Below the pieces are notes generated by a model, which saw only the letters and a list, made by a program, of their open reading frames with translations, did not search any database and was not told the DNA's origin. A stretch of DNA of 63,771 nt, counting the filler, from Collodictyon triciliatum (Eukaryota), in NCBI GenBank assembly GCA_043381765.1. It is 5 parts of 5 records of this genome, joined end to end, with 100 filler letters (N's around TTAATTAATTAA, not from the genome) between each part and the next. Parts side by side here need not be neighbours in the genome. Positions count along the whole stretch, not along the records: positions 42,314 to 59,446 come from JBHJMP010000454.1; 4 more parts are not named here. One strand, written 5' to 3'. Shown here one piece after another: positions 11,778 through 58,654 of the stretch (its first letter is position 1; every line of letters begins with the position of its first letter). The position numbers and the translations under genes were made by a program.

Positions 11778-12312
11778 TCAGCAGGGCGCGGGGAGTTCGT
11801 CTGACGAATCCAAGGGAGATGTTTGGATGCAGAGGGTTTTGCAGACTGGGCTCGACTTTGGGCTTTGGACTCTGCCGTCGCTGTGTTTAGCCTGCAGACT
11901 GCTTTGTTGCGAGTGCGACTTTGGCAGCGCCAAAAGGACTTCAGGAAGGACCAGTAGTTTCTTTTTGTCGACCGTCGGATGGACAGCGCTTTCAATGGCG
12001 GACTCGCGCGTATCTTTGCTGCTGTCGCTGTCGCTGTTGTTGTCACATGTGTACTCCTTCCGAGGCAGAGAATCCTGCGTCACAACCGCCGAATCTGAGG
12101 CAGTGGCGATGGTCTCGTTCTTGTTGCTGCTTTGCGGTGGGACTTCAGAGTTGGGCTCGCCAGTGAACCACGGATGGTTCAGGGCTTCTTCGCAGCTTGG
12201 GCGGGCGCCAGGGTCGATGCGGAGGAGACTCCGGAGGAGATCCAGCGCTATTTTATGAAGATTTTTTTTTGAGATTTTATATCTCATATTTCCTTCATAT
12301 TTCCTTCATATT

Positions 12313-15505: not shown

Positions 15506-18500
15506 CTACTTTTTCGAGAGAATCCAGAAAAGCATCAGTCTCCACAGGATAATCATCGATATGAGTATTCCAACACACTCGCCGAACGACAAGTCGATGC
15601 TATAGTAGTCCAGAACCTACGGCACGCCGACACACACAATACAGAAGGGTAAAAATGGATTAGATACGTCGCTGGCCTGGTCTCCCTTAATCTATCAGTA
15701 ATTGCGCACACCACAAAACGGTGATAATCACAATGATAATATGAGTCATATATATATATATATATATATAGTAAAAAGAACATATACATCATCTCCTAAT
15801 ACATCAGAGCATGGCTGGAAGCATTCGTATGCGATTGCACTGGTCGGTACTGTAACGCCATCGACTACTATCGTCTCGTTGACCGGGAAGCACGGGATGG
15901 GATTGCATGCGTACGTTTGCCCTTCCAGCTCGGTCTTAATCATGGCGTTGGATGCGTACTTGATGAAAGATGACCTTTCGATCCATATCATGTAGTCGGG
16001 AATGCGGGACTCTGGGATGTAAAATGGGAGTAGAAAACTCCATGCAAGAAGGGACAGGCTGAATATTAAACTGGCGATGGCAGCAGACGAAGAAAATGCT
16101 AGGGCTACGGTTGTGGCGAAGGACATGGCGACCTCAAGAAGGAGAATGTTCATCAAAAGAAACTTGAAAAAGTAGATTGCCCCTGAGCGGAGTCCAATCA
16201 TATAATAGGACACGGCGGTCGCCACCATGTTCGACGGAATTACGACCGGAAGGGAGTGCAGCGACAAGGAGAACCCCAACGCCGCAGGATGGTACATGCG
16301 CCTCGACTTCTCCAGAGTGTATGGTACTTTGTCCTGAGGGTCTTTGGTTGGTTTGGTTTGATTGAGGAAGCGCATGAGTAAAGCAAATGGATATGGTTGC
16401 GTCTGGGTATAAATATGCTGATACAGAAATACAGAAATACAGAAATACAGAAATACAGAAATACAGAAATACAGAAATACAGAAATACAGAAATACAGAA
16501 ATACAGAAATACAGAAATACAGAAATACAGATATATCGCTTTCTTGCGAAAGTGTAACAGTACTGTATAATATGGTATGTGATACGGTGGATGTTAAAAT
16601 AAAAATGAAATGAAATGAAAGATTTTGTTGTGATTATGAAGCATTATAGCATATAAATATATGGAAGTTAAGTATTTACATCCAGCTATGATGCAAAATG
16701 GAGCAAAGAAGGCTGTAACAATAGCGGAGAATATAATCGAAGAGATGCGGTCTCGAATACTGGCTTCGTCTGTTGGAAGCTGATAGTACATGGACCCAAT
16801 CAGCAGTCCAAACAGCACAAGCGATATTGCAATCGTCTGGAAAAGGCTTCGATTACGCATGGAGTGATTCCAAGAGCGCTTCATCAAAATAAAAAGTTGG
16901 TACCAAAACGGTGTTGCATACGAGCCTTCTGAATATTGTGGTAGAGTTGTCTTTTCCTGTGGTGAGATACACATCATTCAAAGAAAGAGATAGCATTTTG
17001 TAATTATTGGGATTGTAGCTTTGTTGTTGTTGTTAATGTTATTATTGTTTGGATATGCGAATCATAAGTTTGCTATGAAAAAATAGCTTTCTCTCGATGA
17101 TATTGTGTATTTGATTGTGAGAGCGTTCAAGAAATAAAAATAATATAAATCGGAAAATGCAAAAATTCAAAAACAGAAAGGTAAAAAAAAAAAAAAAAAC
17201 GAAGTTCTCCACACCTGTGTGTCTTTTTCGATTTCTTCATACACGGTGCGCTTCCCTTGCGATTCTGCAAAGATATCCCGCATCTTGAGACCTTCCTTCG
17301 AGTCTTCGTGAATCACGTCCACTGGTGCATAATTGTAGTATTAACACTTCAAGGACATCTGCAGATACGCTATGATACCTTTATGAACTGAACATCCCTT
17401 TATTCATTTTCATCACATACACATACACATACACATACGCATACACATACACATACACATACATACATACATACATACATACATACATACATACATACAT
17501 ACATACATACATACATACATACATACATACATACATACATACATACATACACACGCACGGAAAAAGAAGAAGAAAAGGTGCAGTTTCGTGTAGCTGTGCT
17601 TACGTGCAAAGTCCGCTGGGTTGTGATAGTCGGGACATATCTTATCAAGCCTCTCTAGATAAGGAAGTAGCGCTGATGTTGGCCCATGGAATGCGACGCC
17701 CCCACGACAGTCGAGCAAGAGCACCTTGTCGAATAGCTCAAAGACGCGCATGTCGGGTTGGTGGATGGTGCAGACAACAGAGCACCCCTTCAGGCTCATG
17801 TCCTTCAGAATCTTTATGAGCCTGAATGATGTCGATGAGTCCAGTCCCGTAGTTGGCTCATCAAGAAAAAGAAGTCCTAAGCAAGTAAACGCCATGTAAC
17901 ATTACTATATCGCCCAGCTTTACTTCTATATATATATGTATATTGCCAATGACTTGTTCGCACTACATTTGCATCCTTCTGTTAGGATACTGTCTTATTC
18001 GTACAAACTCATACAAAATTATCACCTGGATTTGTGATCAGCTCGACCCCGACGCTTGTCCTCTTCTTCTCGCCTCCAGATATTCCGCGAAAAAGCTCTC
18101 CCCCAATCATCGTATCTTTGCAGTTGACTAGATCTAGAATCCTCAGCATCTCGTCAACCTTTATTCGAAAGAGAAATCTCGTGAAAATGAGACACTTGCT
18201 ATCTTGCCTCGTGTCTTATTTTACAGACATATCCTTTCCGATTGAATTTTCTAATTTCAATCTTCCTTCATGATTTTATGTGTAGATGCGTTGCTTAGTT
18301 TGCTTGAGACTATGAATTACAAAGTACAAATGCTGCATGCCACCTTCTTTTCTTTCTCTTCTACCGATAGGTCTAGCGGTAAGCGAAGCATGGCCGAGAA
18401 AAGGATGGCTTCGCGCACTGTCGGGGTCGACAAGAGATTATCATGTTGCGGCACGAACCCACAAAGACACCGCAAGGCCTAAGAAGTGGAAGGGCCGCGT

Positions 18501-25725: not shown

Positions 25726-25797
25726 GCGGGTGTAGCTCAGTGGTAGAGCGTTCGACTGCAGATCGAATGGTCGCCGGTTCAATTCCGGTCGCTCGCT
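25726..25797 (+). tRNA. tRNA-Cys (GCA), intronless
   Basis: Cloverleaf: acceptor GCGGGTG/CGCTCGC, D arm GCTC-AGTGGTA-GAGC, anticodon arm TTCGA-CTGCAGA-TCGAA, T arm GCCGG-TTCAATT-CCGGT, U73 discriminator. Confidence 0.97.
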
Positions 25798-29786: not shown

Positions 29787-31679
29787 CTAGTAGAGGGAGC
29801 GGACGGCGTCCGAGATGCGGCGGGCCTCGACAGTGCCGAAGTACGAGGCAAGGCGGTCTTCGGGGGACTCGAGGATGTCGCCACCGATGATGCCGTCGGC
29901 AGCCACGCGCGGGCCCTGGTTGGGGACGCCGATCTGCTCGAGCCACTGGCCGACCTGCTGCGACGAGAAGTTCTCAAAGTCGGCGCGGCGGATGGCGGGG
30001 TATGCGGGGGCGGCGGTGTAGGCGGCGACGGGGGCGGCGACAACGACGGGGGCGGCGGTGTAGACGGGGGCAGGGGCGGGCGTCGGGGTGAAGACGGGCT
30101 CCGGGGGGTAGACGGGGGCGGTGTAGACCGGGGCGGGGGCGGCGTAGACCGGGGCGGCAGGGGCGACAGAGCCCAGCTCAAAGTCGCGGGTGGCCGGGGC
30201 GGCAGGGGCCGGGGCGTCGGTGGCCACGTCGTCCGAGAGCAGGTAGTCCTCGCCGTCGAGCGAGTCGGCCTCTGCGCGGGGGTGGAAGGCGGGCAGCGAG
30301 AAGAAGCCGGCGACGGCAACGCCCGAGAAGAGGGCGATGCCCATGGTGACGAAGTAGGCGGCGACCTCGTTGCCGGCGGCGTTCTTGTCCGAGGCGTAGT
30401 AGTCGGCAAAGTCGGCGCCGTAGAAGGTGCCCTGCGAGTGGGCGTCGGCCAGCGAGATCATGACGCCGACGCCGGCGACAAGCGAGGCCAGGATGTTTGT
30501 GGACAGGGCGCGGGCGGGGTCCGGGTGCCGGGCGGCAAAGGCCGAGCGGTCCAGCACGCGCAGCCCCAGCACGACGGTCAGGGCGGCCACCAGTCCGGTG
30601 CCGAGCGCGGCGGCCGGTCCGTTCACCACGGCGATCGACGACGACAGCGCAATGCCGCCCGCCACCGTCCCGCTGCGCACCTCCTCCGACAGCACGCGCC
30701 CGTTGTTGAAGAACGACGACGCAACCACCGACGTCACCGCCGCAGACCCCAGCGACAGGAACGAGTTGATGATCACGCGCTGCTGGAACTCCTGCGGCAC
30801 AAGCGCCGCGTTGAACGACGGGTAGAATGCAAACAGCACGGCCGTCCCCAGGAACGCAGTCAGGTTGCCCGAGGCCGAGGCCTTCTTGGCGGCCGCCGCA
30901 GCCTCCCCGAAGCCCTTGTTGTACAGCAGCACAAAGCCCAGCGCAAAGAACGCTCCGAACTCGTGCACGAACAGGTGCAGCTCGTAGTCCGCAATGTTGA
31001 GGTTGTCGCGCAGGATGTAGACGTTCAGGCCGTACATGATGATCTCCACGCCTCCCACAAGGACCAGCTGGATGTACGAGATCTTGCCCAGCACCGCAGA
31101 CGCCGTGATCAGCACAGAGATCGTCGTGTAGGTCGCGCGGATCAGGTCGTGGATGTTGATGTTGAAGTTGTTGCTCCAGTGCGACGTGAAGACGCGGTAC
31201 CAGAACTCATTCACAAGCAGCGCCCACTGCAGTGCCACGGCAGCGTACGCAAAGTTGTACACGATGGCAACGAGGTTTCCGCGGCGCTGTTGTGGTGGGC
31301 AGGCAGAGCAGTTCAGTGGTGGTCAAGGTAGGAAATTCAGCGTATGGAGTGCCCCTCATGGGTCGAGGTAAGTAGAAGGAGGGAAAGAGAGGAGACTACT
31401 TACACCGAAGGAGTTGAAGTAGCCGTAGCCGATGAGGGTCATGGCCATCAAGTGGGTGTAGAACAGGTAGTGGAGGGGATCATAGCTCAATGTGTTGTAG
31501 AATTTGAGGGGCTGGCCTTTGGCGACGGTTTCGTCATCCTCGTTGAAAAAGTCATAGTAGCTTCCAAAGGAAGGGGTGTCATTGACGTTCTGGAACGAAG
31601 CGATGGTTCGGTATAGGATGATGAAGGTGATGTCGAACAGGACAAACAGGAAGAAGAAGGGCGAGCGTGAAGCGGCCAT
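29787..31679 (-). CDS. Rh-type ammonium transporter family protein with Pro/Ala-rich linker and C-terminal SAM domain
   Basis: Two exons (31679-31404, 31286-29787). Rh motifs: MTLIGYGYF, ALQWALL, SVLITASAVLGK, VHEFGAFFAL, GTAVLFAFYPSFN, TVAGGIA. C-terminus FSSQQVGQWLEQIG...DGIIGGDILES...EARRISDAVRSL is SAM-like. Confidence 0.88.
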
Positions 31680-42117: not shown

Positions 42118-42213
<96 letters not shown>

Positions 42214-42313
42214 NNNNNNNNNNNNNNNNNNNNNNNNNNNNNNNNNNNNNNNNNNNNTTAATTAATTAANNNNNNNNNNNNNNNNNNNNNNNNNNNNNNN
42301 NNNNNNNNNNNNN
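42214..42313. other. Artificial contig spacer
   Basis: TTAATTAATTAA at 42258-42269 within Ns. Confidence 0.97.
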
Positions 42314-42497
42314 CATAAAAAACATAAAAAACATAAAAAACATAAAAAACATAAAAAACATAAAAAAACATAAAAACATAAAAAAACATAAAAAAACATA
42401 AAAAAACATAAAAAAACATAAAAAAACATAAAAAAACATAAAAAAACATAAAAAAACATAAAAAAAAATAAAAAAAAATAAAAAAACATAAAAAAAA

Positions 42498-42546
<49 letters not shown>

Positions 42547-42748
42547 ATAAAAAAACAAAAAAAAAAAAAAAAAAACATAAAAAAACATAAAAAAACATAA
42601 AAAAACATAAAAAAACATAAAAAAACATAAAAAAACATAAAAAAAAACATAAAAAACATAAAAAAACAACATGATGCAATCAGGAGAATGAAAGTGAAGT
42701 TGGCTAATAACATGGCGAACATATATATAAAGGGAGTTCATTTCGACG

Positions 42749-45700
42749 ATGGAAGCCTCCGGGAACGAGACTATATTTTCCTCTTTACAGTCATTAAGGT
42801 AACCACCATATTTCCTTCATACCTAAATGAAAATCCTGAGAGACATATCCCAAGCGATTCAAATTGGCCAGATTAGCATCACTCTATGTCGCAATTCGAT
42901 GCAATTACTTTGTACATACAAAGGGGGAAATAAAATTAAAACTCACTTTACGATATGTACTTTCTTTTTACTCTCCTCAAAACTGTAAGAATACATGAGA
43001 TTTCTCCCAGCAATTTATTAGAGAATACTGGCAAAGCCATCATTTCAAATAGCCCAAATTTCCATATAATCGGGGTTTTCTTTCCGCTGATTTCAAAAAT
43101 ATGCAACTATTTCATTTTTTAAATTATTGATGACATTTAATTTATTTTGTTTATCAGATCCATTTTTAAGGATAAGAGCTGTTTCTCTTATATCCTTCAA
43201 GAAAATCTGAATACGAAGCCAATAGGAAAAACTGGTGGGGAATGGATACTGACATTTAATTATAAACAGGTTAGACCATCAACACAACTAAGAATGATTT
43301 CGTTGAATAATGCAGAAACATTATCCCTTGACGCACATCCATCATTTTTTTTTATCGAATTTCGTTCTTTTCCCTACAATTTTTTAAAGGGCTGTTAATT
43401 TTCATATCAGCCTCTTGGTGAAAAGCTTTATTTTGTTCCTCATTTGAAGTAATCTTCTATCTCATTCCTTACCTTTTTTCTTTCATTCGATTGTCAAAAG
43501 GACTCATTCTCAGACGAAGAGATATCATTGAAATTCCTCTCAAAAAAATTTAAAGAACTAGGATTAAAAACAGAGACGTACCACGACCACACTACATCTA
43601 AGGTTCTGTTTAAAGACTCTATTCTTTTTCAAGAAAACGACCAGTGACATCACATACGCCTTCATTATTCATAATTTAATTATACTGCAATATTCAAACA
43701 CACACTCAAATAATATTAATAAATTCATGCGGCGTTTCCTCTGATAATGTGTCTATAATTCAGGTGTTTGTATTCGTCTCTGGTTCTGATTCATTCTACT
43801 ATGAACAGGCAGAAAATAGACAGTTGAAAAGACCAAAAATCGTGAGTTATGTGTCCATTTCATAGTCAAGTTTATTTAATTGGCCGAATGAATCCTTAAT
43901 TACAATCGAAATCGATTCAATGTCGTTTTTCAGGGTGGCGGACGATATACATTCGAGAGAAACAAGATGGATTCGTTTGTGGACTCGGGGAATGTGAACT
44001 TGTTTTTTTCTTCCGCAGAGAGGCAAAAAATGATACTCGATATTCTACTCTCGTATGATTCAATACATAGACATTAAATAAAGGGATAACGAAATTAAAA
44101 TGCTGGCTTTATTGCTCCGTTATTCATAAATTGGCTTATTATCTTTCATTTACATACAGGATAAAGGCCTCGAATGAAGAGCCTCTTCAAATGAAAGATG
44201 TTTCGTTTATTCATGGGGACCCTATAGGTGCGGTGATTTTCTGATTCATTTTGAGTCCATTACTGTGAGTATTGAAATATATGATGAATCATCGAGTCGG
44301 GGTTCTCGAAACCTGACCAATTAAGCATACCTAAATTCACGAAAAGTCCAAAAACTCCTTGTGACTGGTATCATCCGGGAAATGTATCCAGCTCACGAAG
44401 AGACAAGCCTCGATTTAATTCGGTTCAAATGGATGAGAGAACCCACAAACTCATTACTTTTATCCATATTTGATTATTTCGGTCAAGACGTCTCTTGGTT
44501 CTTTACTTGGTCAGGTAATTTAACTATATCACCAGGCCTGTCAATACATATTGAGGGAGAAGAAAAAAAAATCTAATAAGGATTCAATATTTTAAAGATT
44601 TTTTGAGTAAATTCCTCGCCGTGCCATCTGTATGCGGCCTATTATTTGCAGCTTACGAGTTAGTAACACTCATACTTTTCAGAATATGGTGTTATATATA
44701 TTAAGCGTAGTTGAATAACCATAATAAATATATCAATAGTTGGGTATTTCCATATTCTCTTGCGCTAGTATGGTTTTCCATAGCTATATCTTTTTGGGGT
44801 AATCCTCGATAGATAAAATAAAAAATAATATCAATTCATCTCACTTTATCCCCATCCATCAGACAACCGAATACAATATTCTTTCAACAAATACTTATAT
44901 TCATTCCCCTTCAACCAGCCGTGATAATGACCGAGCTCTGGAAAAGGAAGACTTTTATTTTACAACACAGTTGGACTCAATTCATGGATTTGGTCTACGA
45001 TTCGAATGTCGGTATAAAAATTCCAAAAAAAAAATTTTCGACCCCTACTCCCCCGCCTTTAATATATCATTCGAGAACGTAGATCACATATTGTAAAGAA
45101 GTATATGTATATCTAAATGAGGCCACTAATTTAGGATGAAGAAAGTGAAGGGGTTGATTTTGAAGTCGACACAGACGCCCTGATGAAAGCCAGGAATATA
45201 GTGCCTCAGTTCTTAAACTATGCTTGTATCTTGATAATCGTAATAAATCTTTTCCGATTTATGTTCTTTTTATTATAAAATTCAATCGATTTTTTTTATC
45301 ACAGGCAGTTATCCCCACATCCATCTCGTGCGCATCATTGATGCCAAGTTATGTGTATCTTGAGTCTTTTGTCTCTTGCGAAGTTTTGACACTGGGTCAT
45401 GTCGTTTTGATGAGAATTCAATCACAAGTTTGGCTATTCCCTTTAACATTCTTGGAGACATGCATAATTCTGACTCAAATATTTTTACTCAATACATTAG
45501 ATATATTGGGTCTTGGTCAAGTACATAAATGACTTTGGTGCGTGATATATCTCGACAAATTCTATTTTTATGCGTAATATCTAATTTATGGTATTATTAT
45601 CAAAGTCAATTATCCTGATCAAAAGTCGAGATCAAAACACTTCTGTATAAAGATACTTGCGCTAGAGTCTTTGAATAGGTCAGAACTTTCAATGTGTGAT

Positions 45701-48700
45701 CCTTTTTATGATGAAAAAAAAGTAGCTTATAATAAATGCTACTTTGCTCCTTTACAGGCCTCTTTTCTTTGCATTTTCAGCCTTTTTAAGGCGGGATATT
45801 GGTTTACTGAAGATTCAGTTGGGTGAGATTCCTTTGATTCTTTTTAACCTTGGATTACAATATGATTATTATCATTATTTTTTTAAAAAAAAGAAAATTA
45901 AGAGGCATATACTCATGTTCGTCATTTATAGGAATTTATTTTATTGCCAATCTGTTTATTGACATCCTGTGCATATATTTGCCCATGTGAGTCGCTCTGC
46001 CTTTGTGTCACTTTTTCTCTCTAAAATTCTATCCATCATCATGCGCACTATATATAATTATAATATCAGAGATATTTTATACTAAGACATATGAACTACT
46101 TGTCTGATTAAATGCCCCATGAACAAAAAATGGACAAAAGTTTAATCAGAGCAAAATGGGAATCGTGGCTTAACGAGCGGCCTATTATCCTATCGGAGAA
46201 TGCTAACAAAAGAACTGAAAAAAACTCAACTAAGCCAGCCCAGCCTATGTATGGCCAAATCTTCATGGCTAAGGTAGATTCTCTGAAAATCTTAATCCCC
46301 TCCCGAGAACATAATACTATTTGGTCGGTTGAGAGAAAATTTTACTATTACCCCACCAGAATGACCATAAGCCGCGATGCTTTTCACTAAAATTTATTTT
46401 CATAGCTTGGAGCAAACCACACTCTCACACACTCTGAGGATTTCAACTGGTATTATCTTGAGATAGGTGGAGAAATAGTTTATTCGTTAACAAGAAGGTC
46501 GAAATATCCTAAAAGTGAAAATTTTGTTTGTACCACTAGCTGTTGTACATTTGACACTCATGTGCATTCAATTATACACAGCGATCCAATTTTCTGTGTT
46601 GGTCTTTTTTGGTTCTGCTGCACCTATAATATTTATGATTGGTCTCATTGATATATCTTTGAAGTGGAATATGAATATTTACATATTACTATTTTACGCC
46701 AAGGTTTGTGTTTTATTAACCTCAAATATTTTTTGATTCAAGTCCAAATTTTCTTGATCGTGATTCAGTTTCATAGAAGTTTAATACTCGCGAGAACTAA
46801 TATTATATTGCTGCTGTATAGAGACCTATGGATGGTTGTATCGATCAAAGTAACATATAAATTAAATAGTTATGATTTTCTCAGTTAATTAAATTTCTTG
46901 TGCTGATACAAGGATGCTGGTTTCGAATGTTTGAAGTGGTATCCATATCTTCTTTGGTTTTCAACTTGGGGATAAGCATCCTGAAACTTTCAACAAGTGA
47001 GAACGAAACGAGCGCTGATTACAACTGGATTGTTACCATAGTCGTCACTTTTTTTGAGGTAGCCATTAGAAAGTTTATTTCAAGAAGAGAAAATAATTAT
47101 AGTTTTTAAGATATTTTAATTCATTCACATGAACATATATCCGTACATTTACCAAGTATTATATTTTAATCCATACTATAGCACTTTTTGTTTGTATGGA
47201 AAGTATTTTTATCGAAAAGTTTCGATGAGACATCATGGCACTCAAATTTCAACAAAGTATGCAAGTTATTATTCTCCATAAGATACAATGCAATTTTATT
47301 TGAATGATTTTAAAATTAATATCCAAAAAGGTATTACGGAAGAGAGTAGAATCTACTATAGTCTTTGTTGAAGAAGAAATGTTGAGATGGATGAATCACT
47401 CTTTTTCATTCATGAACAATCAAAATCAAAATTATTATGCACTTGGCTGTGTTATTTTTGGACTCACGGCAGGAGCAATGAAATTGAACATATCTTACTT
47501 GATTATATTTTATGTCGCAATACACCACAAACGCCATCAATCAAGTATTAAAAAAGCTCATAAAATCATAAGAGCCATGCAAAAAAGGATATATAGCGAC
47601 CCTATGGTACGTTGTTCCACTAACTAATATATCAAAATTTAGGTTTTAGAAATATGATGAATAGGCATTAAGGGCTTATATAACCGTGAAAATAAAACCA
47701 TACAGCTTATTTCTACTGTGGAAAGCTTGGACTGGATGAATAGTGTGTTCAATGCCTTTTGGTCAAAATTTGGAGTCGATTTTTCAAACAAAATGAAACA
47801 AACGATTAATCAAAGTCTTGACAGTAATAGACCACTTGTTTTGGTGAGTTTCTTGTCGTTTATTTTCCTATAAATTTATTCATCTTACAGTTAAGGTGAT
47901 ATTTATTATACACCTACACATCTATATTTTGTTTACATCGTTTGATTGAACGTATTGAATTGTATTTTTTCTTATTTCTTAGTACTATTAATTTCTTTCT
48001 TTTTAGACAACTCTAGGTTTGCGAGATTGTTCACTCGAGACATTGAAGTTTCATTTTTCGAAAATATACACAATCCAGCCAAGTAAAGATAGAAATATAG
48101 TAAGTTTTTTGTTTTAGATATTGTTTTTGGAAATATTATACAAATATAGCTCCGTTGTTAAGCGAACAATAAAAATACACATAAATTCTGGCTCAGGGGT
48201 TGGAAACCGATGTCGAGATTACCATGGGTTCGGATATTGTCATCGTCGCTGGAATCGGAGTGGATGCAACCATAAAAGTTACAAAACCGAAGGCAAAAGG
48301 GCGGGTATTATGTTCTTTTCTTTTGTTTTTGATACTTTTTTCTAAAAAATTTTTTTTTACATAAAAGCAATAGCATATGAGTTTACCCAATTAATGCCCC
48401 CCTAATTCTAAATATACAATATCATTACTGTTATCACTATTTGTGATGCAATACATATTGATTTATTCATATGTTATCAGTTGAGGATGGAGTTCAAGAT
48501 TCTTTCTCAAAGACCACCAGTTGGCCTTATAGTGATACAGTTTATTGAAGAACCTATTCTTAACTATGGGCTTACCCCATTGAATACAACCAATATTATG
48601 GATATTGATTTTATTGCTGAGTCAATTCGAACGACAGTCAAAGCAAGTCTACGTAATTCACATTTTTCAAATAGTCTTTGGGCTATGATGTCTTATAAGT

Positions 48701-51498
48701 ATAACATCCTGCCAAAAAAAATTTTAACCTCGAATTATATGGTTACACAAGGAACTTGTTCGGTCGAGATTTGTGAATGATTCCATCAAAATTGCACTTC
48801 ATGAATCAGAAACACAAAATACTAGCTACCGATTTTGTCTGGCTATCAAATCAGCCAAGGGTCTTATTTTGAGGGATTCTATAAGTACTTTCATTTTATA
48901 ACAAACATGAAGAAGTAAGCTGATGTTTTACTTGCTACTCCTTTCATAGGAGACACAAAGCTATATTGCAAAATAAACATAGGAGGAAAGTCAATCAAAA
49001 CTAGATCAGTAACAAGCAGTCACAATCCTTACTGGGATGATTGTTTCCAAGAAACAGTCAAAATACGGTATGATACTCTGCTATCCTTGTGGACAAAATT
49101 AGAGAGTGTTATTAAAAAAAAAAAGTACGCAATTTTATTTTTGTATTCGATGCTTTTAATATTCATTAAAGAGAGTCATATAAAATTTAGAGATGATACT
49201 ATAATTGAGGACATTAGCATCCAAATCAAGGAATCTGTCTTACCATCAGATAATACAATTGCTGCGGTGAATGTAAGAATTCAATAAAGAGCGAAACCAA
49301 GCTATAATGCTTCCTTATGAATGTGCATGTGGCTGAACCTGGGATTCGACATTCTACTAAACTGCGAGTATTTGATTGCAGCTAAATATCAGTAGTTTGG
49401 GGAAGTCAATCCACTGGTTAACATAGTCTTACTATCTATTTTTTTCATTAGGTTCCTGTGCAAACCCTGAAACCATGGCAGATGAACACTATGATATTAG
49501 ACGCAGAAAAACCTTGTCATGGGCAAATTTGCATCAGCGCCTTCTTAGAACCACCGTTTGGTAGGATATTTATACTTTGAATGCAGTACGATTGTTATGG
49601 TGACTAATACATAATAACCACTGCCAGCTCATTGCATAGTATCTATAGTTTGAGAAATATTATTCAGATTTGATTTTCTCTTCAAATAAGCTGATAAGAA
49701 TCCTGTGGCCCTCTCAATCCACTTGACCAGTTTTGATGAGCTTATTCCGCTCCCTAAAAGTATGGCATTACCATATGTCCCCCATTTATTCGATTCGAAG
49801 TAGCTATGTCATATTTAAATTGTATTTCATTTGACCTTTGTTTTTTTTTAAATTTTAAAAATTAATCTAAAAAAAAGTGTATGAATACATAATTGTCCTT
49901 ATACTTCTCATTCGATTATGACACCATTTTCAATCTCAAAGGAAATGCATACTTTATCTTTTTGATGGATGGATTCGAAGTTCGTACGATACCCCGTAGA
50001 CATACAAGGAATAATGATATAAATACAGGCTACATTCTTTATTTTGAAAGGCCTTCCAGGAATCTTACAATTCAGGTCTAAAAAAATTCAGCCGAGTGCT
50101 ATCCCAGAAATTTATATTGACAGTATAACCAATATAAATTTGAGATAATTTATTTTGACATAATGCTAACCTTTTTATTCAATACATGATTAATTCACCC
50201 ACAGTTTTTGGAAGAAGGGTCAACAGAACCTATCGAGTCTGTGGATATGCTTCTCCCTACACTAGATATTAAAGAAAAGTCTATGGTAAAGGTTGATTTT
50301 AGCCAGCATATTCGCGGTAGCCTGGACCTTGAGCTACAGTTCCTCACTTATTCAGATATTCCTATCAGTGGGTCTATTTTTAACTATTTTCATGTCAATT
50401 TTATGTCAATTTTATGTCAATTTTATGTCAATTTTATGTCAATTTTATGTCAATTTTATGTCAATTTTATGTCAATTTTATGTCAATTTTATGTCAATTT
50501 TATGTCAATTTTATGTCAATTTTATGTAATTTTATGTAATTTTATGTAATTTTATGTAATTTTATGTAATTTTATGTAATTTTATGTAATTTTATGTAAT
50601 TTTTCCTTTTCATGTGAATGCAAATTATATCGCGGTTCATTCAAGGTGCTGTTTTTTGCTTGTTCGAAACAACAACCCAGCATACACAAAAGAAAAAATA
50701 TTAATAAACGTATTGAAATCGGGGTATTTTTCATTTTAGATCCAGTCATGGGTAGTGTGACGATTATGGTGCATGGCTTCAAGAATCTTTCCATGCCTAT
50801 TTCAGGTATACTATTATCCGTGCATTCGCTCAAGTCTTTCCTGTGTTCATTATGTGGCTCTTCATCCGTTCTATTTACTTCCGTTTATGTTATATTAAGA
50901 TATCATCCCTTCCTTTCTTTCCTGGTAATTATTCTTATGGGTTAGATGCAGCCTTGGTTGGAAAACTTCATAAAATGAAAAGAGTAGTTGTTGGCAAGGG
51001 GATGGTATTTGTTAAAATATAATGAAATGCACAAGTGATTCATTTGGTTTGATATCGCCACAACAAGATTTCATGTTCGCTCCTAAAACTCGCGTAGGAG
51101 CCGATGTCATGCTGGATTTGTGTCGGGAATGAAGCCCAAGATATTTTAATTTCCGACGGCAAATGCTCAGCTACAATCACGATGCTTGTTCAAGACCAAA
51201 CTAATCAGTTCATTCGTATATACATCGGGTTCTTGGGTGATGACATCCATGCGCATTTTTGTTTTCTGAAGGTATCGCCTTATTTCATTTATCTCTCAAA
51301 TATCACACGTGTAATCTCATAACATTTCATTTCGTATATGCCTGCTCATATATATGCACATTTCCTGCCCAGATACCGCTCTCCGCCGTATCATCGACAA
51401 ATATCACCAGCGGCTGGTTTCCATTTGCAAGTGCAACTCATAAGTTTGAAGATGGAAATCCAGAAGTGCGCCTGGACGCATTATTTGCTCCATCATAA
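42749..51498 (+). CDS. Anoctamin/TMEM16 domain fused to hydrophobic hairpin-SMP-C2-C2-C2 (tricalbin/E-Syt-like); start uncertain
   Basis: Anoctamin motifs: FFSSAERQKMI, MYPAHE, IFDYFGQDVSWFFTW, TELWKRK, YLEI|AIQFS...AK|RP, FFE|HFLFVWK. SMP: VESLDWMNSVFNAFW...RPLVL, GR|LRMEF...QFIEEP...NIMDI. C2A: IKSAKGL...LYCKINIGGKSIKTRSVTSSHNPYWDDCF; two further C2-like repeats; TAA at 51496-51498. Confidence 0.8.
50392..50601. repeat. (ATGTCAATTTT)n switching to (ATGTAATTTT)n, intronic
   Basis: Direct tandem repeat with an 11-mer to 10-mer transition. Confidence 0.95.

Positions 51499-51812: not shown

Positions 51813-58654
<6,842 letters not shown>

Follow-up and report, generated by a model that had tools for sequence, protein, structure and literature searches.

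Does the DNA that follows an anoctamin (TMEM16) coding region of Collodictyon triciliatum continue the same gene, or does it begin another? The question is raised by positions 42749-51498 on the plus strand of a 63,771-nucleotide (nt) stretch of five joined parts of assembly GCA_043381765.1 (hereafter the window), in which the locus lies on the part taken from JBHJMP010000454.1. A first reading made from the sequence alone (the sequence-only reading) had proposed that a TMEM16 protein is joined here, in one frame, to a lipid-transfer module of the E-Syt/tricalbin type, consisting of a hydrophobic hairpin, an SMP domain and three C2-like domains. Having followed this proposal up computationally, we conclude that the locus is one gene, whose spliced messenger RNA (mRNA) encodes a single TMEM16-hairpin-SMP-C2 fusion of ~1283 residues with a proposed coupled function, and we give this reading a probability of roughly 0.78. 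The fusion gene itself is real, seen in two distant organisms.

The gene model was built from splice joints and loose ends in contigs of two sequencing runs (X1 and X2), from splice signals, and then from a distant relative, P0001. It yields a stop-free spliced chain of ~39 exons, from ATG 42749 to TAA 51496-51498, with introns of 60-372 nt (median 115 nt), at least 18 of which are backed by RNA joints or loose ends. P0001 has a similar N-terminus, in support of the start codon. Intron 45679-45757 is part of the final model, and one intron was corrected with the aid of P0001; the model is poor between 50806 and 51372, where the small exons are guesswork. The junction between the two halves falls after residue 643. 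The features are as follows, with evidence in brackets (HSP, high-scoring segment pair).

42749..51498, plus strand: whole fusion gene, ~39 exons, ~1283 codons (RNA joints, open frame, P0001)
42749..47256, plus strand: TMEM16/anoctamin half, exons 1-21, residues 1-643 (colinear tblastn HSPs of P0001 over 43495-46727)
47182..47256, plus strand: last anoctamin exon, end of transmembrane helix (TM) 10 and C-terminal helix (matches P0001 ~636-660, itself aligned to the TMEM16K C-terminal helix)
47206..47210, plus strand: run of five T (T5; X1 lacks two T, X2 equals the window; frame effect computed)
47257..47330, plus strand: junction intron (joint 47256->47331 in X1 and X2; sequence)
47331..47606, plus strand: linker, hydrophobic hairpin and basic stretch, 92 residues, 644-735 (hydropathy; P0001 alignment)
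47706..48883, plus strand: SMP domain (exons 47706-47843, 48007-48099, 48197-48304, 48481-48636 and the start of 48752-48884)
48800..49560, plus strand: first C2 domain (parts of exons 48752-48884, 48950-49124, 49191-49272 and 49452-49560)
49691..51498, plus strand: C-terminal region, ~220 residues (tblastn HSPs to P0001 1079-1217; kept as far as P0001 reaches)
50386..50603, plus strand: 11-nt tandem repeat, 20.5 copies, inside intron 50368-50739 (X2 loose end and sequence)

At the junction, the last anoctamin exon (75 nt) translates as HFLFVWKVFLSKSFDETSWHSNFNK, as read directly and checked by script, contains no stop codon when spliced, and is followed by a GTATGC donor. The junction intron measures 74 nt (GTATGC...AAAAAG, a GT..AG intron) and lies in phase 0, and exon 47331-47606 resumes in phase 0 with VLRKRVEST.... 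Every checked coordinate of the donor and intron described in the sequence-only reading proved correct, as did its statement that no gap interrupts the locus: 42749-51498 is free of N, the closest N runs being 42214-42257 and 42270-42313.

That reading had also named RNA across 47256/47331 as a check, and the spliced joint was found in contigs of both X1 and X2. Five public runs are listed for the locus; X1 and X2 are small and presumed to be RNA, and X3 and X4 are metagenome DNA. Their contigs were compared with 42749-50380; being contigs and not reads, they demonstrate the junction and do not imply a single molecule spanning the whole gene. The joint 47256->47331 occurs in an X1 contig at depth 9.27, with 77 nt on its shorter side, and in an X2 contig at depth 2.9, with 74 nt on its shorter side. 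X1 record 6 (848 nt) connects 46430-47056, 47182-47256 and 47331-47474, and X2 record 10 extends to 47562. Further downstream, X2 RNA is unbroken over 48752-48884, covers 49942-50072 and 50202-50367, and has a loose end at 50367 that skips the intron to 50740. Joints of the GT..AG type that coincide with the bounds of model introns occur in contigs of X1 and X2, but in no contig of X3 or X4. Among the joints listed (15 of 29), 14 are GT..AG and one, from X3, is CA..TG.

Independent evidence came from a relative. The 55-residue exon 44349-44513 was used to query 1,835,955,588 representative proteins at E<=0.001, and a single protein passed, P0001 (1263 residues, E 8.9e-6), an open reading frame (ORF) of a EukProt Trinity transcript labelled 'complete'. 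Its matches to known families and structures run in the order proposed for the window gene.

P0001 230-653: Pfam Anoctamin (PF04547), E 1.4e-92, 311.4 bits, cutoff 28
P0001 117-654: TMEM16K structure (PDB 5oc9), chain residues 83-625, E 3.3e-55
P0001 201-442: best stretch to the afTMEM16 structure in PDB, E 3.8e-34
P0001 764-1071: E-Syt2 SMP-C2A-C2B structure (PDB 4p42), residues 4-319, E 6.2e-16
P0001 765-942: Pfam SMP_LBD (PF17047), 23.2 bits, under the cutoff of 27
P0001 855-942: Pfam SMP_MUG190-like (PF25669), 39.3 bits, cutoff 35
P0001 953-1052: Pfam C2, E 8.8e-16, 58.5 bits

With tblastn, P0001 produced 20 plus-strand HSPs within 42-52 kb, the range and strand to which the count was restricted beforehand by filtering out HSPs lying elsewhere or on the other strand. 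Nineteen of the 20 are colinear, from 43495 to 50804, and the one out of order has E 8.6. Globally, 370 of 1226 aligned positions (30%) are identical between the window model and P0001. A phmmer comparison aligned model residues 45-1210 with P0001 57-1217 as one domain of 572.5 bits, with junction residue 643 inside it, and 0 of 20 shuffled controls scored. The N-termini are alike, and both proteins carry the hydrophobic hairpin. These data establish how the exons are arranged, that the junction is spliced and that each half is homologous to a known family. The proposal that anoctamin and hairpin-SMP-C2 share one frame is therefore upheld by RNA contigs of two runs, by the architecture of P0001 and by a single alignment that spans the junction. 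Because the same architecture occurs in two organisms whose proteins are only ~30% identical, the fusion appears to have been maintained by selection.

For the TMEM16 half, the exons of the window gene are short (6-92 residues) and diverged, mostly below a usable length for Pfam or PDB searches. Exon 43934-44050 weakly matched Pfam Anoct_dimer (E 0.013), and the sole PDB match of exon 44349-44513 was Anoctamin-10 (TMEM16K) at E 1.2. Matches of single exons to PARP4, IL-2, TilS_C, Endo_dU and GH78_N were set aside as chance. A hydropathy scan placed hydrophobic blocks between residues 233 and 629, without distinguishing ten separate helices.

Downstream of the junction, exon 47331-47606 contains a 30-residue hydrophobic stretch, YYALGCVIFGLTAGAMKLNISYLIIFYVAI, with polar residues in its middle. 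The hydropathy peak lies at residues 683-703, with an equivalent stretch in P0001, and from the sequence we infer a hairpin and not a single-span topology. Used as a protein query, this exon found no relatives of its own; within the single HMMER domain it aligns to the linker and hairpin of P0001. An anchor of this kind ahead of an SMP domain is the arrangement of E-Syts and tricalbins. The next exon, 47706-47843, encodes the start of the SMP domain, ESLDWMNSVFNAFW. The window SMP exons matched SMP_MUG190-like twice at E 0.023, over profile positions 1-39 and 153-204 and in colinear order, and tblastn HSPs over the region reach P0001 763-964 with up to 55% identity (48469-48642). Together with the P0001 scores, these exons identify an SMP lipid-binding domain of the TULIP type, as in E-Syts and tricalbins. 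The expectation that a hydrophobic anchor and then an SMP domain follow the junction is confirmed in both P0001 and the window exons.

The expectation of three C2-like domains fared less well. Exon 48950-49124 matched Pfam C2 at E 7e-4 and 0.0015, with 20.2 bits against a cutoff of 22, and this is the one C2 domain recognised in the window protein. The supposed second and third C2-like regions, in the next ~220 residues, gave no Pfam match, to C2 or otherwise, and hhalign of the first C2 domain against these two later regions returned a probability of <=1.2%. An AlphaFold2 model of a 281-residue part of P0001, computed from the single sequence, had a mean predicted local distance difference test (pLDDT) score of 40.3 and was unusable for assigning a fold. 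The tail 49691-51498 is nevertheless conserved, with tblastn HSPs to P0001 1079-1217.

A number of observations weigh against a single functional fusion protein. None of seven single-exon queries from the window anoctamin half matched Pfam PF04547, so the family assignment of the window protein is drawn from its alignment to P0001; its membership of the anoctamin family, judged in this indirect way, is nonetheless strongly suggested. A Pfam scan, which the sequence-only reading had suggested for the spliced protein, was applied to P0001 and to single window exons and gave a divided answer: P0001 passes for Anoctamin, SMP_MUG190-like and C2 and stays below the cutoff for SMP_LBD, and the window exons gave weak, colinear Anoct_dimer, SMP and C2 matches and none to PF04547. 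The first C2 domain of the window protein is without the D-P-Y stretch found in P0001. Residues ~1218-1263 of P0001 (~45) have no alignment to the window and are not domain-like. When whole P0001 was used as a query in a shared-word search over proteins of 694-2211 residues, seven proteins were returned, and the six besides P0001 are plain anoctamins. X1 and X2 are presumed RNA of low depth (2.9-9.3) whose contigs are not single molecules, and the protein product is a prediction from DNA and RNA contigs. An X1 contig, record 6, lacks 2 nt of the T5 run 47206-47210, a loss that would bring the anoctamin frame to a stop at codon 633, short of the junction. Finally, three of the four acidic sites in TM7 and TM8 are replaced in the window protein, which has Y, E, K and N where P0001 has D, E, E and D.

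Some of these points have a possible explanation. As the last ~45 residues of P0001 lack a match in the window, the Trinity isoform may be incompletely spliced and run out in an intron, and the true C-terminus of P0001 is probably longer. From X1 record 6, 47059-47181 and 47257-47330 have been spliced out, but the upstream introns inferred at 46467-46581 and 46704-46884 are still present, so that it does not represent mature mRNA. Unspliced contigs (43241-43528 and 44198-44374) were also present in X1. Taken together, the unspliced contigs, the retained introns and the 2-nt loss suggest that X1 sampled pre-mRNA, carried-over DNA or a defective allele.

Unspliced RNA at this site bears on the possibility that the locus holds two adjacent genes, the fused message being a minor read-through (conjoined) transcript. 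If the junction intron is retained, the anoctamin frame ends at TGA 47305-47307, and an ATG in the downstream frame, 47304-47306, overlaps this stop as ATGA within the intron; the following in-frame ATG is at 47379. The crowding of stop and start pointed out in the sequence-only reading therefore exists. With the intron retained, translation would yield an anoctamin by itself and could in principle also use a second, SMP-C2 frame, which on the two-gene explanation would begin at ATG 47304 or 47379 under its own promoter. The aberrant or unspliced RNA in X1, with its frame-breaking loss and two kept introns, fits such an arrangement, as does the membrane anchor that the downstream half keeps for itself, like a free-standing E-Syt. 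Yet the spliced joint is found in both RNA runs that cover the site, and no AATAAA or ATTAAA polyadenylation signal is present in 47257-47400. Moreover, the distant P0001 carries the same continuous ORF on a transcript, and adjacency, strand and frame would hardly be kept at such a distance without selection on the fused product. We consider two genes improbable.

The same T run invites the suspicion that the fused frame is an artefact, arising from a wrong homopolymer length in the window or from a chimeric Trinity contig in the relative. X1 does differ from the window there, the window sequence is gapped (14 N runs), and Trinity is able to join neighbouring transcripts. On the other hand, X2 matches the window at 47206, and it is the window frame alone, not the X1 form, that fits the C-terminal helix conserved in P0001 and TMEM16K. 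Since the window frame aligns to this conserved helix, the X1 deletion is more likely an error or a defective allele, short of proof. In addition, the fusion is found, with its parts in the same order and with homologous linker and hairpin regions, both in a genome with its RNA contigs and in an independent transcriptome. An artefact is largely refuted by these data and is very improbable.

The altered acidic sites raise a different objection, namely that the fusion is real but its TMEM16 half no longer scrambles and serves only to anchor an E-Syt-like tether and transfer protein in the membrane or to let it dimerise. The four TM7/TM8 positions are those that we take to be the calcium ligands (E702, E705, E734 and D738 in mouse TMEM16A). 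Acidic ligands at these positions mark the calcium-activated TMEM16 members and not the fold. P0001 shares its acidic pattern with TMEM16K, whereas the calcium site of the window copy looks degenerate from its sequence. The window protein also reached P0002 with a best phmmer E of only 5.8e-4 (Z=1e6), against 3.5e-31 for P0001; on these scores it is far more diverged from ordinary anoctamins than P0001 is. Against a loss of function, the 643-residue half has stayed open over 21 exons and aligns with P0001 from end to end. Loss of calcium ligands alone does not abolish scrambling in the TMEM16 family, and Ist2 is reported to be a scramblase in an excerpt of PMC12617493. Given the degenerate site, scrambling, if kept, may be calcium-independent. 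A non-scrambling TMEM16 half is possible, though we lean against it.

Returning to the single fusion protein, its layout from N- to C-terminus would begin with a TMEM16K-like anoctamin, with the N-terminal cytosolic region and the membrane domain first. A linker of ~35 residues would follow directly after the C-terminal cytosolic helix, and then the hydrophobic hairpin of ~30 residues, the SMP domain, at least one C2 domain and the conserved tail. TMEM16 proteins have their N- and C-termini in the cytosol, and the E-Syt hairpin likewise has its two ends there; the SMP-C2 part would therefore be cytosolic as well, and the fusion topologically coherent. The TMEM16 domain and the hairpin would sit in the same membrane, most likely that of the endoplasmic reticulum (ER) by analogy with TMEM16K and the E-Syts, and the C2 part may contact a second membrane. 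The SMP domain would move glycerolipids between cytosolic leaflets, and the attached TMEM16 domain would re-equilibrate lipid between the leaflets of the membrane in which it is anchored. Each of these activities, be it scrambling, transfer or tethering, is one that family membership would predict. As to the origin of the fusion, the most likely event is the capture, on the 3' side of an anoctamin gene, of an entire E-Syt-like gene that brought its membrane anchor along.

A bolder version of this proposal is that the fusion is an old, selected single-chain machine, in which dimers of the TMEM16K-type scramblase and of the SMP domain would make up one assembly at a membrane contact site, with shuttle-type transfer obligatorily coupled to scrambling. 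We offer it tentatively and think it rather less likely than not to hold in full. If true, it would serve as a Rosetta stone, predicting that in other eukaryotes, animals and yeast among them, E-Syt/tricalbin proteins and scramblases of the TMEM16K/Ist2 type are direct functional partners. In the current model, lipid-transfer proteins need a scramblase in the membrane that they feed or drain, and this model is based on non-covalent pairs (ATG2 with ATG9, VPS13 with XK, and Ist2 with Osh6). A naturally occurring union of TMEM16 with SMP-C2 would extend the transfer-scramblase logic to shuttle-type SMP proteins and provide a natural test case. The fusion would also offer reconstitution and structural studies an object of fixed stoichiometry. 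For model organisms, it makes a partnership of E-Syts or tricalbins with TMEM16K or Ist2 a concrete proposal that can be tested.

With P0001 660-1200 as the query, the shared-word search described above returned no protein beyond P0001. The Atlas clusters nearest to the C-terminal half are E-Syt- and tricalbin-like (0.86-0.88), and the anoctamin family is in none of those listed; both observations serve as leads only. Among metagenome contigs, a pattern made from the linker exon gave 421 matches and an alignment of the P0001 and window SMP regions gave 597, with 0 confirmed relatives in either set. No description of a TMEM16-SMP fusion was found in the literature covered, to which supplements and subscription journals did not belong. 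As far as these searches can tell, the domain architecture is new and built from known families, and the earlier suspicion that it was undescribed agrees with both the literature and the protein searches, in which P0001 was the only other fused member.

The window consists of AT-rich eukaryotic DNA, with a GC content of 26-35% around the locus, common microsatellites and the N runs mentioned above. Directly upstream of the start codon, 42120-42668 comprises a (TTA)31 run, two 44-N runs and a 350-nt A-rich array of 10-mers; given these N runs and repeats, the promoter region is not fully assembled. The 11-nt tandem repeat at 50386-50603 has the unit ATTTTATGTCA, with 99% matches over its copies, and lies inside a 372-nt intron. 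Past the 3' end of the fusion gene, the minus strand of 52228-52416 encodes the end of a RasGEF domain (Pfam E 6e-6), so that the two genes converge. Short DNA contigs of X3 and X4, labelled as freshwater and subsurface metagenome, match stretches of exon plus intron with 0-1 mismatches (for example 43967-44268, 47625-47830 and 48664-48814); such near-identity indicates that the same or a very close organism was present there at low depth. Farther away, 29787-31322 (minus strand) holds an uninterrupted 511-codon ORF of an Rh-like ammonium transporter (Pfam E 9.3e-23) in a block of 61% GC, a striking contrast with the 26-35% at the fusion gene. Other features of the window are an ABC-2 type transporter membrane domain (15746-16630, minus strand, E 3.1e-14), the end of a protein kinase domain (11778-12302, minus strand, E 2.1e-4, below the cutoff) and one tRNA (25726-25797, plus strand).

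Among known systems, the TMEM16 part of the fused family has its best solved relative in the lipid scramblase TMEM16K (anoctamin-10, 5oc9), which resides in the ER. TMEM16K ends ~40 residues past its C-terminal helix, whereas the fusion continues into the hairpin, SMP and C2 regions. TMEM16K keeps the acidic TM7/TM8 sites, as does P0001, in contrast to the window copy with its three losses. E-Syts and tricalbins (E-Syt2, 4p42) share with the fusion the order of hairpin anchor, SMP and C2. They start at the hairpin, however, whereas in the fusion a whole TMEM16 protein comes first, and they have three to five C2 domains compared with the one recognisable in the fusion. The principle of coupling transfer to re-equilibration is shared with ATG2, which works with ATG9, TMEM41B and VMP1, and with VPS13, which pairs with XK. 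These pairs consist of separate polypeptides, with bridge-like carriers and scramblases of other families, while the fusion would unite an SMP-type carrier and its scramblase in a single chain.

Yeast Ist2 with Osh6 provides an experimental precedent for such coupling. In the excerpted text of PMC13286939, Ist2, a TMEM16 protein of the ER, acts as a tether to the plasma membrane and has a lipid-transfer protein as its partner, and, according to the excerpt of PMC12617493, its scramblase activity sustains lipid transfer by Osh6 at ER-plasma membrane contacts. Transfer between cytosolic leaflets requires leaflet re-equilibration in the transfer-protein/scramblase model, as an excerpt of PMC8667587 puts it. 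Judged from these excerpts, Ist2 with Osh6/7 follows the same logic as the fusion, in which a scramblase, a tether and a transfer protein are brought to one site. The means differ. Ist2 has a long disordered tail with a basic membrane-binding patch, of a kind that the fusion lacks, its C-terminus being made up of SMP and C2 families. In Ist2, an ORP-type exchanger is recruited non-covalently; in the fusion, the SMP domain is covalently joined and C2 takes the place of the tail.

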